A DNA stretch of 64,000 nt from a bacterium (GCA_963624695.1 CAVFRH010000083.1:28185-92184); one strand, 5' to 3'; counted from the stretch's first letter, positions 20,183-25,773 are shown. Notes: generated by a model not told the origin, from the letters alone. Numbers and translations: made by a program.

Positions 20183-21142
20183 TCAGGCGTCAGCCGCCGA
20201 TACCGTGGATTCATATCTGCTCAATGCTTCATTCCATTTTTCATAAGTGGAATCCTCCCGGTGATCCGTAAACAAACCGGTCTGGCTCAGGTAATCTGTC
20301 AGACAGCTTGTCACCTTCTGGGCTCCGTAGTAATTCAAGTGATCTCCCTGATCCTTCGTATCCTTCTGCCAGTCAATCGAAATTTCATCACTCATCAGAT
20401 TCATATCAATGTAGTCACAGGACAGCTCTGAGGCAAGGGCTACGACTCCGTTGTGGCGTTCATAGTTCCAATTTACGGTGCTTGGTGTACTGAGCAGCAA
20501 AAGAGTTGCTCCGTGTGCTTCACAATAATTTTTAAATTTCTTCACATACTCTACATTCCGATCCGGAATCTTTGCACTACTCTCTGTCACTGTCATATGT
20601 CCATTATCCTGGCAGCCATCTATGGTATCTGTGTAAATATAGCCTTTATTATCCTCGGTCCAGGTATACTCCGGATTCATTTTCAGATCATTTAAGCTCA
20701 GGCTTTTCCAGCGGTTGTGATAACGAAAGACTGAAAAAGCATCTCCCAGCCTGGACAGATCTGCTGTCGAATCCGATACTTCCCGATAAATGGCATCTGT
20801 TTCCAATATAACCAGCTTCGGGCTCTGCTTTTGAAAGGCTCTCTTCAGCAACGTTAAGCTGTAATCCAGAGTCTGAGCACCGCTGCCGCACACATAAGAG
20901 GTGTAGCCGGAATCCTTCCAGATCTGCATCGGTGAAATAGAGGAGTATGCCTCGCTGTCTCCCACTACCAGGACATCGATGGTATTTTCCTTTTCTCCCA
21001 GAATTCCATTTGCAGACACTTCCTCTATGCCAAATTCCGACATATTGTTCTTTGGCATCAACAAAATGGATGCGCCAATCAAAAGTCCGATCAAGCCCCC
21101 ACAGAAAATCAAAAAAGTAAATATTCTTTTCACATAAAGCAT
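20183..21142 (-). CDS. membrane-anchored SGNH/DltD-like (possibly DHHW-family) protein
   Basis: ATG 21142 is preceded by GAGGAG. Features: N-terminal TM (IFTFLIFCGGLIGLLIGASILL), VVGDSEAYSS (GDS block), a late GDHLN block. Its position after the MBOAT gene matches dltD or algJ/X. Confidence 0.55.
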   Translation of the reverse strand: MLYVKRIFTFLIFCGGLIGLLIGASILLMPKNNMSEFGIEEVSANGILGEKENTIDVLVVGDSEAYSSISPMQIWKDSGYTSYVCGSGAQTLDYSLTLLKRAFQKQSPKLVILETDAIYREVSDSTADLSRLGDAFSVFRYHNRWKSLSLNDLKMNPEYTWTEDNKGYIYTDTIDGCQDNGHMTVTESSAKIPDRNVEYVKKFKNYCEAHGATLLLLSTPSTVNWNYERHNGVVALASELSCDYIDMNLMSDEISIDWQKDTKDQGDHLNYYGAQKVTSCLTDYLSQTGLFTDHREDSTYEKWNEALSRYESTVSAADA

Positions 21143-21153
21143 GGTTTTTCTCC

Positions 21154-23041: not shown

Positions 23042-24268
23042 TTAAAATGCATAAGGCGACAGTCTCATCCTCTCTGATGTAGCATCCGCTGTCATATCCG
23101 GTGTATTCAGAAGATCTGCTTCTATGGGTTTTCTGACTACCAGATAGCTTTCATCTTCATTTAAAAGCACAATTTCCGGAAGATCCCTGCTTAAGAAAAG
23201 CGAAATTCCCTCTGTCATACAGTAAGCTCCTGCATTTTGAAATGCCAGAAGATCTCCTATTTGAAGTCCCGAAAGCGGTGCACGTTTTACTAAGATGTCA
23301 TTGGTCGTACAGAGAGAACCGCAAATATTCCATTCCTTTCTTTCGCCTCCCCTTATAGATGGAAGGAGTGAAAATTTCGGACGCTTCATTGCCATCGTAT
23401 GGCCGTAGTAAACAATCTGATGCATTCCGCCGTCTATGATGGCATAATTCTCACCCTGATTTTGCTTCACATCTACCACCCTGGTGATGTAGCTTCCGCA
23501 GCTTGCTGCAAGACTTCGTCCAAGCTCAAGGGTTAGCTCTCCGTCGTATTTCATAGAAGAAAGAAGGTCTGCAAAGGAACTGAAAAAAGCTTCTTCATCG
23601 AAGTCCTCCCCTTCAAAATAATTAAATGGAAGTCCGGGTCCCAGCTCCAGCTTGGGCATTTTAAAGTGATGTTCCTCATACAGTTCTTCCAGATATGCAT
23701 CCAGCATTGCAATCTCTCTTGTAAGCTTTTTGATGGAATTTTTCTGAGTTCCGGAGAAATATTGAACACCGTATATTTCAAGCCATGGGTCGTTTTGATA
23801 AGTTTCCACAAGTCTTGTCAGATCTTCCCTGTCGATTCCGAACTGATTTCCGCATGTAAGGCGCAGGAGTACCTTTATTTTTTTCTTATATTTATTTGCT
23901 GCTTCCTGAAGAAGCTGAAACTGACCTATGGATTCTGCCGTATAGCAACCGATTTCTTCTCCATCCGCAATCAGCTTTTCTGTCTCTTTTTTTTCTTTGT
24001 AAACGCCGGATATGACATATTTTTTCTTTGAAATCCCGAGCCTTTGACAGATTCGATATTCTCCCGGGGAACATATTTCAAAGTATTCGAGCTGATCTTC
24101 CAGTGCCTTCAAAATAAAGGGATTTGCCTTTACTGCATAGCAAAGCTCCACCTTCTTTGGCAGTTTTTCCCTTAAAAACCGTACTCTTTTCTTTAATTCC
24201 TTTAGATTAAAAACATACATTGGGCTTTGCTCTTCTTTTGCAATCGCCATCAGTATTTTTTCATTCAT
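23042..24268 (-). CDS. fold-type III PLP-dependent decarboxylase (Orn/DAP/Arg decarboxylase family 2)
   Basis: N-terminal barrel motif CYAVKANPF (PLP lysine), GPGLP, and C-terminal CGSLCTTNDIL resembling the DAP/ornithine decarboxylase active-site Cys region. The start overlaps the upstream gene's stop (ATGA). Confidence 0.8.
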   Translation of the reverse strand: MNEKILMAIAKEEQSPMYVFNLKELKKRVRFLREKLPKKVELCYAVKANPFILKALEDQLEYFEICSPGEYRICQRLGISKKKYVISGVYKEKKETEKLIADGEEIGCYTAESIGQFQLLQEAANKYKKKIKVLLRLTCGNQFGIDREDLTRLVETYQNDPWLEIYGVQYFSGTQKNSIKKLTREIAMLDAYLEELYEEHHFKMPKLELGPGLPFNYFEGEDFDEEAFFSSFADLLSSMKYDGELTLELGRSLAASCGSYITRVVDVKQNQGENYAIIDGGMHQIVYYGHTMAMKRPKFSLLPSIRGGERKEWNICGSLCTTNDILVKRAPLSGLQIGDLLAFQNAGAYCMTEGISLFLSRDLPEIVLLNEDESYLVVRKPIEADLLNTPDMTADATSERMRLSPYAF

Positions 24269-25773
24269 CTTTTTTTCCTTTCCAGCAGCAGACGACGATC
24301 TGTTTTTCCGTTTTTTGTCAATGGAAACGCTTCCAGCTGCTCTAAAATTCCCGGAATCATATATCTCGGAAGAAAACCTGTCAGCTGACTGCGAAGCTCC
24401 TTTTTTTCAATGCTTCCTATGTAAAATCCATACAGTCGCTGCTTTTCTTCATCAAAAACAGCACAGCATCTTTCCACTCCCTTGATCTTTGATACTGCCT
24501 GTTCAATCTCCTCAAGTTCGATCCTGTGGCCCATATATTTGATCTGAAAATCCTTGCGTCCCTTAAAAAGAATCTCTCCGTCAGTCGTATAGGTGCCAAG
24601 ATCTCCTGTCCGGTAGATTTTTTCCGGATACCATTTATTCAACGGATTTTGTACAAATACCTTTTCTGTCTGTTCCGAATTTCCAAAATAGCCAAGTGCA
24701 AGTGCCGTGCCCCTGACACAGATTTCTCCTATCTTTCCGGCTTCTGTCACTAAGCCGTTTTCATCCAGCAGAAAAGCCTCTTCATTTGGAAAGGCTTTTC
24801 CGATTGGGATTCCCCTGGAATAATCCCTGCCCCTCACAATGTGGTGATAGGTACAATTGCAGGTGATTTCCGTAGGTCCGTAAAGATTTACAAACTCTGC
24901 ATTCGGGAGCTTTTCCATCCATATATTTAAATGTTTTAAAGGCATCACCTCTCCGCTGAACAGCACCCTTTTCACTGTCGTCGGTATGCGATAATCCAGT
25001 CCATGAAAAGCAGTTATGAGGCACAGTGCAGATACTGCCCAGATCATGGTTGTAACTTTATGCTCACAAATAAAATCCAACAGCAGCTTCGGCTGTGAAA
25101 AAAAGTTTCTTGGGATAACCAGGAGACTTGCTCCGCTTTTCAGGGCTGTATAAATGTCCTTTACCGATACATCAAAATCGAAGGGTGCCTGATTTCCGAT
25201 CACATCTGAATCCGTAATGGAAAAGAGCTCTGAAAACTGATCTATAAAATCAATTACACTTCTATGGCTGACCACTACTCCCTTTGGAACTCCTGTGGAG
25301 CCAGAAGTAAAATTCGCATAAAGAGGATCGGTATCGATCATTTTACTTCTTATACACTGCAATTCTTCCTTATTTACAAGGGCTTTTTCCAGCCCTTTTA
25401 TCATCAAAATATGATTCTGATCTGTCAGTCTTTCTGCCAGCTTCAAATGTTCCTCATCTGTAATCAGATACTTTGCATTAAGCACGGATTGTATCTGCTC
25501 CAGGCGTTTTTGCGGAAGCTCCGGATTTAAAAAAGAATAAAAGGCACCGGCCTGAACAATTCCAAGAAATATTCCAACTGCATCTGCATTTTTTTCCGTA
25601 AGTACTGCAATCGGTTCGCCAATATTCACTCTGCCTGCCAGAGCACTTCCAATCCGCATCGAAAACTCCTCTAACTCCCGGTAGCTATAGCTTGTTTTTC
25701 CATCTGTCACAGCTGTTTTTTCAGCATGACATTTTGCACTATTTTCCAGGTATTCTAAAATATTTCGCTGCAT
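24265..25773 (-). CDS. DltA-like amino acid adenylation enzyme (carrier-protein ligase)
   Basis: ATG 25773 is preceded by AAAGGAGA. It is 502 aa, the size of DltA. Adenylation core motifs: FTSGSTGVPKG, YGPTE, YRTGDL, GRKDFQIKYMGHRIELEEIE, NGKTDR. Confidence 0.85.
   Translation of the reverse strand: MQRNILEYLENSAKCHAEKTAVTDGKTSYSYRELEEFSMRIGSALAGRVNIGEPIAVLTEKNADAVGIFLGIVQAGAFYSFLNPELPQKRLEQIQSVLNAKYLITDEEHLKLAERLTDQNHILMIKGLEKALVNKEELQCIRSKMIDTDPLYANFTSGSTGVPKGVVVSHRSVIDFIDQFSELFSITDSDVIGNQAPFDFDVSVKDIYTALKSGASLLVIPRNFFSQPKLLLDFICEHKVTTMIWAVSALCLITAFHGLDYRIPTTVKRVLFSGEVMPLKHLNIWMEKLPNAEFVNLYGPTEITCNCTYHHIVRGRDYSRGIPIGKAFPNEEAFLLDENGLVTEAGKIGEICVRGTALALGYFGNSEQTEKVFVQNPLNKWYPEKIYRTGDLGTYTTDGEILFKGRKDFQIKYMGHRIELEEIEQAVSKIKGVERCCAVFDEEKQRLYGFYIGSIEKKELRSQLTGFLPRYMIPGILEQLEAFPLTKNGKTDRRLLLERKKR

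Follow-up and report, generated by a model that had tools for sequence, protein, structure and literature searches.

A Dlt-like operon with an embedded PLP-dependent decarboxylase suggests carrier-protein-dependent MBOAT-SGNH decoration of the cell envelope

D-alanylation is a major determinant of cationic-peptide resistance, autolysis, and host signaling in Firmicutes. Within a 64,000-nucleotide (nt) stretch of bacterial DNA (GCA_963624695.1 CAVFRH010000083.1:28185-92184; here, the window), a preliminary description made from the sequence alone had pointed to an operon at positions 20183 to 25773 that resembles the dlt operon of this pathway, yet carries its own pyridoxal 5'-phosphate (PLP)-dependent decarboxylase, an enzyme that canonical dlt operons do not have. 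What does a decarboxylase contribute to an operon of this kind, and which group would such a pathway transfer?

The five genes encode, in order, a stand-alone amino-acid adenylating enzyme (here A), a fold-type III PLP decarboxylase (DC), a small carrier protein (CP), an MBOAT (membrane-bound O-acyltransferase), and a membrane-anchored SGNH-fold protein (D). We consider this architecture very probable, together with a relay that would pass an acyl group from His309 of the MBOAT to Tyr530 of the same protein, then to Ser63 of D, and finally to an acceptor. For the system as a whole, the reading that we favor, and regard as moderately probable, is a carrier-protein-dependent MBOAT-SGNH pathway in which an aminoacyl group, formed while bound to the carrier, would be added to an envelope molecule outside the cytoplasm.

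Architecture of the operon and comparison with the Dlt pathway

The open reading frames (ORFs) of five tightly packed, co-directional genes are found where the preliminary description placed them, on the minus strand, which it had left unstated, and each of the motifs that it quoted is present. On an identical public contig (GCA_964643865.1), a separate gene call assigns the first four genes products of 502, 408, 76, and 533 aa, with D lying beyond that locus. For D, an alternative upstream start exists, a TTG at 21157 that corresponds to the coordinate given earlier; the ATG at 21142 was judged better. Hydropathy analysis found no transmembrane segments in A, DC, or CP.

Relatives of DC were sought by a degenerate-pattern scan across one genome per species, which recovered at least 588 species genomes that encode one; locus-level counts given here refer to the best 80 loci from these genomes. 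DC is present between A and CP in 80/80 loci, which bears out the dedicated role that had been proposed for it. The A-DC-CP arrangement is complete in 76 of the 80, the contigs of the remaining 4 ending right after DC, and the full order A-DC-CP-MBOAT-D is seen in 74, with 5 more that end at contig ends. At a single locus, L015:11163-14334 (JAZQGR010000086.1), from a metagenome-assembled genome (MAG) of Eubacteriales, unrelated genes (ArsC/Spx-like, NifS, and NifU) come after A-DC-CP in place of the MBOAT and D, which may reflect a truncated operon or a mis-join in the assembly. As described previously, the A stop and the DC start share an ATGA, with the ATG of DC inside the overlap. An overlap of some length between these two genes occurs in 57/80 loci and one of exactly 4 nt in 42/80, while the gap between CP and MBOAT measures 1 to 4 nt in most of them.

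Searches with Pfam and NCBIfam models support the AMP-binding, Orn/DAP/Arg decarboxylase, PP-binding, and MBOAT assignments far beyond chance. A matches the AMP-binding family PF00501 (E=1.7e-66) and exceeds the cut-off of TIGR01733 (338.9 bits against 317.4); DC matches Orn_DAP_Arg_deC (PF00278, E=2.4e-16) and Orn_Arg_deC_N (PF02784, E=1.2e-13); CP matches PF00550 (E=7.6e-5), with its DSL motif kept in 75 orthologs; and the MBOAT matches PF03062 (E=2.4e-19). No NCBIfam model specific to any of the five operon proteins was found. The best specific matches of A, MBOAT, and CP are the models for DltA (TIGR01734, 299.4 bits), DltB (TIGR04091, 168.4 bits), and DltC (NF003464, 32.2 bits; the best NCBIfam model for CP), and all three scores lie under the respective cut-offs of 559.85, 375, and 68.

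The Dlt-like logic that had been read into the operon, from adenylation through carrier and MBOAT to an extracellular SGNH protein, holds up in this comparison. In both systems, a stand-alone adenylase loads a small carrier, and a catalytic His of an MBOAT, an FxYxxF-type Tyr, and a membrane-anchored SGNH transferase follow in turn. The differences from Dlt extend beyond the scores. A PLP decarboxylase has been added; the genes run A-DC-CP-MBOAT-D, not X-A-B-C-D; D falls outside the DltD Pfam family; and DltB, at about 400 aa, is without extra C-terminal helices, whereas the MBOAT encoded here has 533 aa and two of them. No separate ORF for a DltX microprotein was seen in the operon or its 200-nt leader, where the sole small ORF noted has 16 codons.

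The MBOAT may explain this difference. Its sole sequence matches in the PDB are to DltB (8jem and 6bug, E about 1e-23), over residues 144 to 386, which include the RWH and WHG motifs, and the catalytic-type His309 in FWKRWHITL aligns with DltB and is invariant in orthologs. The core is nevertheless closer to an AlgI/PatA-type MBOAT found in a Faecousia sp. genome (39% identity) than to DltB (27%), and hydropathy predicts two extra C-terminal hydrophobic helices, at residues 465-483 and 499-517, that are absent from DltB. In 75/75 orthologs, the protein ends in [DENA]P[IML]YAxF-COOH, nearly always as DP[IM]YAxF, with the Tyr and the terminal Phe invariant. The Tyr of an FxYxxF motif is the covalent acyl carrier in DltX, which ends in FIYNEF in L. 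plantarum (PMC13653941), and in PatA the FxYxxF shuttle belongs to the MBOAT itself, carried by a pair of additional helices (PMC12148441). By its sequence, the MBOAT tail matches the DltX/PatA shuttle motif, with Pro instead of Phe as the first residue; because of this match, the function of DltX appears to be built into the MBOAT. An external position of the tail is predicted from the loop rich in K and R that connects the final pair of helices. The preliminary description had missed both the AlgI/PatA class of the protein and its fused DltX-like shuttle.

The resemblance to PatA/PatB, to AlgI/AlgJ/AlgX, and to the Faecousia DHHW-MBOAT cluster thus comprises the MBOAT core, the two extra helices, the invariant Tyr located three residues from the C-terminus, and an SGNH-fold partner. 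Unlike those systems, in which the donor is an acyl-CoA, the operon has its own adenylase, carrier protein, and decarboxylase; in addition, the shuttle motif starts with Pro rather than Phe, and D is outside the DHHW, AlgX, and PatB families. Other MBOAT/SGNH pathways have been described as using acyl-CoA and as ones that "lack a similar carrier protein" (PMC12148441). A fused-shuttle MBOAT with a dedicated adenylase and carrier protein is a combination that this account does not cover, and we did not find a description of the A-DC-CP-MBOAT-D gene combination in the full-text literature searched.

The Faecousia cluster (L036:2141-8324) lies just upstream of that genome's copy of the operon and comprises a DHHW gene, a 466-aa MBOAT ending in FLYFRF, a second DHHW gene, and a GDSL gene; genes for an ECF sigma factor and for a protein with DUF3298 are also part of it. 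We considered whether this second MBOAT might belong to a dlt operon; the cluster is of the DHHW/MBOAT acetyl type and serves as a comparator only. This genome therefore holds acetyl-type and carrier-protein-type MBOAT systems side by side.

D was previously described as SGNH/DltD-like, and of these two attributions the first stands. No match to Pfam (E<=0.01) or NCBIfam was found, and assignment to DltD (PF04914) or to the DHHW family was accordingly rejected, leaving the SGNH fold alone as supported. An AlphaFold (AF2) model with a pLDDT of 83.8 shows the SGNH fold by Foldseek, where TesA and sialate O-acetylesterases match at E of about 2e-6 and DltD (6pfx) appears at rank 26. A single N-terminal transmembrane helix (residues 10-28) and an outward-facing topology are predicted. 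The motifs G61-D62-S63 (GDSE) and G266-D267-H268 (GDHLN) are invariant, and Ser63, acting with His268, is the predicted nucleophile. The family is large, with 1507 cluster representatives at E<=1e-30, and is without a Pfam model. Tandem copies also occur: L029:7866-9694 and L048:13304-15395 (Enorma massiliensis) each carry two D genes after the MBOAT, and a 924-aa representative (P0246) holds two D-like stretches. Such duplication hints at diversification of the acceptor.

That D belongs to a new SGNH family leaves room for other targets. A membrane lipid, a small molecule that is secreted, or a protein might receive the acyl group, or the operon might be a secondary-metabolite module, and in favor of this the on-carrier decarboxylases described so far come from natural-product pathways (PMC11350588). 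However, the characterized bacterial MBOAT-SGNH pairs all acylate extracytoplasmic polymers (PMC12148441), and the conserved neighbor of the operon is a two-component system, while polyketide synthase, nonribosomal peptide synthetase, and tailoring genes are not conserved around it. We regard these alternatives as distinctly improbable.

Substrate pocket of the adenylating enzyme and order of the reactions

We derived the specificity code of A from an alignment with DltA (PDB 3e7w and 3fcc), ZmaJ, and a GrsA fragment. The DltA reference differs from PDB 3e7w at three residues only; for the GrsA fragment, the sole check is that it reproduces the published code DAWTIAAICK. In GrsA numbering, the code of A is DVKILSLCNK, corresponding to D201, V202, K205, I244, L271, S273, L297, C305, N306, and K490. 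Across 76 orthologs, with identities of 45-76%, each of these residues is fully or almost fully conserved. It shares 2/10 positions with the DltA code (DLMTMCTVAK) and differs at the other 8. The DltA residues L198, M201, and C269 (B. cereus numbering) touch the methyl group of D-Ala (PMC11253843); their counterparts in A are V202, K205, and S273, again invariant in the 76 orthologs. Because these contacts are replaced and the code is invariant across orthologs, the pocket indicates that the A family acts on one conserved substrate, which is not D-Ala. The earlier proposal that a group other than D-Ala is loaded agrees with this.

What the pocket contains is equally informative. Apart from Asp235, which binds the amine, the pocket has no acidic residue, and one turn of the helix away from Asp235 stands an invariant Lys at position 239. 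A Lys at position 239 is also found in the Glu code DAKDLGVVDK. Lys239 suggests that the substrate retains a second carboxylate at adenylation, in which case decarboxylation would come after loading. A Lys with no acid is the opposite of what Lys- and Orn-activating domains have, which speaks against Lys and other cationic substrates, and the bulky remaining residues (I, L, S, L, and C) suggest a short one. The idea that a dicarboxylic precursor is attractive, put forward in the preliminary description, is supported.

Relatives of A were less helpful as guides. Its best single-domain match in the PDB, 8xjz_C, is a "Peptide synthetase" of 1634 aa and scores 322 bits, compared with 198 bits for DltA. 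With the L-Ser enzyme ZmaJ (code DVWHFSLIDK), A shares 5/10 code positions and 34% identity overall. The closest relative in a plasmid collection (37.5% identity) is at L081:7310-13316 in Paenibacillus cellulosilyticus (NZ_CP054613.1), next to genes for an SDR protein, an aminoglycoside-N-acetyltransferase-like protein, a GNAT protein, a 76-aa carrier protein, KAS III, and an MBL-fold protein. These genes make up a different carrier-protein pathway, which is unannotated. Neither L081 nor ZmaJ reveals the substrate of A.

DC retains the key residues of its family: the PLP lysine K47, E248 and R251 of the ExGR motif, the catalytic C320, and Y349 of AGAY are invariant in 81 sequences. It resembles LysA in fold and PLP-binding residues, with a TM-score of about 0.8 to diaminopimelate decarboxylase (DAPDC) structures. 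Unlike LysA, however, DC is embedded in an acylation operon and has lost the motifs that hold the distal end of diaminopimelate (DAP), since in the alignment CE[ST]GD and RPxxY are missing and LCTTND and MHQIVYYGH stand in their place. F171 occupies the PLP-stacking position of the family's His, which is a Tyr in BtrK. With a score of 175.9 bits against the lysA model TIGR01048, well below its cut-off of 297.9, these sequence comparisons show that DC is not LysA. The motif LCT[PT]xD is common to DC, BtrK, and SbnH, and the latter two act on amino acids tethered by the side chain. BtrK, the L-glutamyl-[BtrI ACP] decarboxylase, is the top PDB match to DC by sequence (E=2.7e-29) and occupies Foldseek ranks 1 and 2 (E=2e-27, TM-score 0.79), at an identity of about 22-23%. 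We asked whether sequence or fold could decide among Asp, Glu, and DAP as the substrate of DC, and the margins separating BtrK, SbnH, DokD, and DAPDC are too small for such a choice.

Publicly, some DC homologs are annotated as "alanine racemase" and other operon entries as "hypothetical protein." DC scores 24.3 bits against the alr model TIGR00492 (cut-off, 168), and for this reason the racemase name reflects the shared N-terminal barrel alone, making such annotations misleading. The name matters because it would fit an ordinary dlt operon for D-alanylation in which the PLP gene is a housekeeping lysA or an alanine racemase that supplies D-Ala, a reading to which the top rank of the DltA, DltB, and DltC models also lends itself. 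Yet each of those models falls far short of its cut-off, the D-Ala contacts in A are replaced, the MBOAT is nearer to AlgI/PatA with its fused shuttle, D is outside the DltD family, and DC has the C-terminal barrel and catalytic Cys of a decarboxylase without the DAPDC motifs. The operon is also present in a Streptococcus suis genome (L047). At the level of the species, Streptococcus suis has a canonical dlt operon. A search of the 64-kb window by tblastn, with the operon proteins and the DAPDC of A. aeolicus as queries, found no second lysA-like, DltA-like, or MBOAT gene. The model scores, the pocket of A, and the features of the MBOAT, D, and DC show that the operon is not canonical dlt, and we give D-alanylation hardly any credence as its function.

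Another pairing of this kind is known from exosortase A-associated loci (TIGR03098/TIGR03099), where a ligase of the AMP-forming type is paired with a decarboxylase of fold-type III in a locus related to envelope or exopolysaccharide. DC and A score 176.1 and 204.9 bits against these models, whose cut-offs are 478 and 592, respectively. To our knowledge, the exosortase pair is proteobacterial and has no MBOAT-SGNH relay; a full-text search found no literature on it.

Closer precedents for a ligase, a carrier, and a decarboxylase acting in concert come from antibiotic biosynthesis. BtrI/BtrJ/BtrK (butirosin), CtaD/CtaE/CtaF (closthioamide), and the macrolactam systems FlvN/L/O (fluvirucin) and VinN/L/O each combine an ATP-dependent ligase, a stand-alone carrier, and a co-encoded decarboxylase of the ornithine decarboxylase (ODC)/DAPDC family. 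They differ from the present operon in purpose, since here the components feed a membrane MBOAT-SGNH export relay, and BtrJ and CtaD are ATP-grasp enzymes. The vicenistatin enzymes VinN/L/O decarboxylate on the carrier. So do the Btr, Cta, and Flv systems, in which Asp or Glu is bound to the carrier via its side-chain carboxyl and decarboxylated there (PMC11350588, PMC7183216), and CtaF does not accept free Asp (PMC11350588, PMC7183216). Because the Btr, Cta, and Flv clusters load first and decarboxylate second, and because of Lys239, this order is the likelier one here as well; by analogy with these clusters, we rate decarboxylation on the carrier as fairly likely.

The reverse order would have DC act first, on a dicarboxylic amino acid in its free form, and turn meso-DAP into L-Lys, Asp into beta-Ala, or Glu into gamma-aminobutyrate (GABA), after which A would load the product for export by the MBOAT and the SGNH protein. 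The best-known members of the DC family do use free substrates, DAPDC and DokD are near-equal structural neighbors of DC, and the pocket of A lacks the VinN-type K330/R331 pair. The preliminary description had offered the first of these routes, free meso-DAP converted to Lys and then adenylated, and this is disfavored by both enzymes: DC is without CE[ST]GD and RPxxY and below the lysA cut-off, and A has an invariant Lys with no acid to meet a cationic side chain, making Lys or Orn unlikely. For beta-Ala, Asp235 is invariant in A, whereas known beta-Ala codes displace it. The characterized clusters that pair a ligase and a carrier with an ODC-family enzyme act on the carrier, and the rejection of free Asp by CtaF also speaks against a free substrate (PMC7183216, PMC11350588). 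We therefore consider the free-substrate order unlikely. Of the broader suggestion that the decarboxylase makes or edits the loaded amino acid, the dedicated role survives, while the order it implied gives way to on-carrier chemistry as the likelier course.

Proposed pathway and the points that weigh against it

The favored on-carrier reading can be set out as a sequence of steps. In the cytoplasm, A would adenylate a dicarboxylic amino acid, with L-Asp favored and L-Glu possible, and would thioesterify its side-chain carboxyl to the phosphopantetheine on Ser32 of CP. DC, acting in the manner of BtrK and CtaF, would then remove the free alpha-carboxylate of the tethered residue, which would yield beta-alanyl-S-CP, or gamma-aminobutyryl-S-CP if the residue were Glu. 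The MBOAT would dock the loaded CP and, via His309, move the acyl group across the membrane to its own Tyr530, and the acyl-Tyr tail could then swing into D and acylate Ser63. From there, D would hand it on to an acceptor, at a hydroxyl or perhaps at an amine. Such an acceptor, for example a teichoic-acid-like polymer, peptidoglycan, a polysaccharide, or a lipid, would gain positive charge. Expression would probably be under the adjacent two-component system, in a response to envelope stress or cationic peptides.

4-Aminobutyryl thioesters and esters lactamize readily, while beta-alanyl derivatives do not. For this reason, and because the pocket is bulky, Asp is favored over Glu for a relay of four steps. 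The specific conversion of Asp to beta-Ala nonetheless stays a tentative proposal, which we would call somewhat doubtful.

Several observations weigh against the on-carrier reading. By sequence, the code of A is overall closest to those of Ser-type alpha-amino-acid domains; the canonical Ser code, DVWHLSLIDK, has 6/10 positions in common with it. If Asp or Glu were activated by A at the alpha-carboxyl, no alpha-carboxylate would be left for DC, and the pocket Lys can equally pair with an amide or a hydroxyl. VinN, for comparison, reads the alpha-carboxylate via K330/R331, and its beta13-beta14 loop is one residue shorter (PMC11253843). We looked for VinN-like binding of Asp as a beta-amino acid and set it aside: positions 330 and 331 are C305 and N306 in A, a Cys and an Asn in place of Lys and Arg, and no deletion is evident by YGPTE, although loop length is ambiguous from sequence. 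V236 and S301 were also weighed as VinN-like marks and are not diagnostic, since they occur in Ser-type domains such as ZmaJ. On the side of DC, the lead of BtrK over DAPDC, DokD, and SbnH is small (105.6 bits against 100.1 and 97.7; in Foldseek, E=2e-27 against about 1e-25), and the change from His to Phe at the PLP-stacking position could have altered the reaction specificity. A literature search did not turn up beta-alanyl or GABA esters on the envelope polymers of Gram-positive bacteria. Finally, we infer the substrate and its product, whether loading precedes decarboxylation, the acceptor, and the physiological role.

Some of these same points would fit other PLP chemistry on the carrier. 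An alpha-loaded Asp, Glu, or Ser-like residue might be epimerized to the D-form, or alpha-aspartyl-S-CP might be beta-decarboxylated to alanyl-S-CP; in a variant, meso-DAP would be loaded at its L-centre and decarboxylated at its D-centre to give lysyl-S-CP. The Ser-type, alpha-amino-acid-like code, with its Lys inside the side-chain pocket, is in keeping with this, as is a possible shift in reaction specificity through the His-to-Phe change, and the DAPDC family works at D-centres, so that tethering of the L-end would explain the lost L-centre motifs. Against it, we know of no racemase or beta-decarboxylase in the ODC/DAPDC subfamily, and the alr model reaches only 24 bits. In addition, I278, L299, S301, and L322 are bulkier than their counterparts in Lys- and Glu-activating domains, which would disfavor the seven-carbon DAP. 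Such chemistry strikes us as quite unlikely, and decarboxylation of a side-chain-tethered residue is the course that we retain.

Hosts, gene neighborhood, and wider meaning

Most of the hosts belong to Oscillospiraceae, Lachnospiraceae, and other Clostridia of the gut and rumen; Acetobacterium, the Streptococcus suis isolate (L047), Enorma massiliensis (Coriobacteriia), and Phascolarctobacterium (Negativicutes; L070) are among the others. Cultured carriers include Streptococcus suis SSHP-D, Acetobacterium carbinolicum DSM 2925, Catenibacillus scindens DSM 106146, and Coprococcus intestinihominis. The operon proteins of L004 (binned as Gordonibacter), L047, and L070 are 50-72% identical to those of the window, across phyla. 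Such sequence likeness suggests horizontal transfer or, in the MAG cases, mis-binning.

Within the window, the operon is flanked upstream by genes for a response regulator and a histidine kinase and downstream by a MacAB-like efflux set (Table 1).

Table 1. Coordinates of the operon and of the flanking features within the 64,000-nt window
Feature	Coordinates	Strand	Remarks
A, stand-alone amino-acid adenylating enzyme	25773..24265	-	502 aa; AAAGGAG ribosome-binding site upstream
DC, fold-type III PLP decarboxylase, Orn/DAP/Arg family	24268..23042	-	408 aa; no transmembrane segment
CP, carrier protein	22987..22757	-	76 aa; phosphopantetheine Ser32 in YLDSLAI
MBOAT	22755..21154	-	533 aa; starts shortly past CP stop
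MBOAT C-terminal acyl-shuttle hexapeptide PIYASF-COOH	21174..21157	-	Tyr530 = predicted covalent acyl acceptor
D, membrane-anchored extracytoplasmic SGNH-fold protein	21142..20183	-	319 aa from ATG after GAGGAG
OmpR-type response regulator	28242..27538	-	Pfam Response_reg + Trans_reg_C; directly upstream of operon
Histidine kinase	27575..25971	-	Pfam HisKA + HATPase_c; two transmembrane segments; ~195-aa extracytoplasmic loop
MacAB-like tripartite efflux genes	20139..16039	-	HlyD_3 adaptor, ABC_tran ATPase, MacB_PCD/FtsX permease (Pfam); directly downstream
Terminator-like hairpin, strong, 17-bp stem	16031..15995	-	After efflux genes

A cognate-like pair, defined as a response regulator at >=50% and a histidine kinase at >=35% identity to those of the window, adjoins the operon in 26/80 loci, in varying orientation, and the adjacent two-component system is likely its regulator. 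For the MacAB-like genes, linkage is weak, as L001, the closest relative, is the sole other locus where they adjoin it. By analogy, a two-component system with a large sensor loop next to MacAB-type efflux would resemble loci for defense against cationic peptides or envelope stress.

Other features of the region were noted in passing. The HlyD-type adaptor of the efflux set (17899-20139, minus strand) is unusually long, at 720-746 aa, with Ser/Thr-rich low-complexity linkers and a Gly-rich C-terminus. Cumulative GC skew declines monotonically over positions 1-64000 with no skew switch, and long ORFs in the 14-32 kb part lie mostly on the minus strand; the window appears to lie inside a single replichore.

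Each module of the operon has a known relative; it is the gene combination and the predicted envelope modification that appear to be new, rather than a categorically new system. The operon contradicts the generalization that a carrier protein is found only in Dlt and that fused-shuttle MBOATs use acyl-CoA (PMC12148441). It is quite possible, though we hold this less firmly than the pathway itself, that it represents a third, widespread class of MBOAT-SGNH system, the first in which a fused-shuttle MBOAT is fed by a carrier protein and the first in which the group is made by on-carrier PLP decarboxylation, and that the resulting omega-aminoacyl (beta-alanyl or gamma-aminobutyryl) decoration, unreported so far, is borne by the envelopes of abundant gut and rumen Clostridia and inducible through a two-component system. 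If this is true, a chemically different envelope decoration would be in use among many anaerobes of the gut and rumen, given that at least 588 species genomes carry the operon. Thiotemplated decarboxylation, known from antibiotic biosynthesis, would be joined with MBOAT-SGNH polymer acylation, two fields so far separate, and the operon would open a way, accessible to experiment, toward a surface epitope or charge modifier that is new for commensals.

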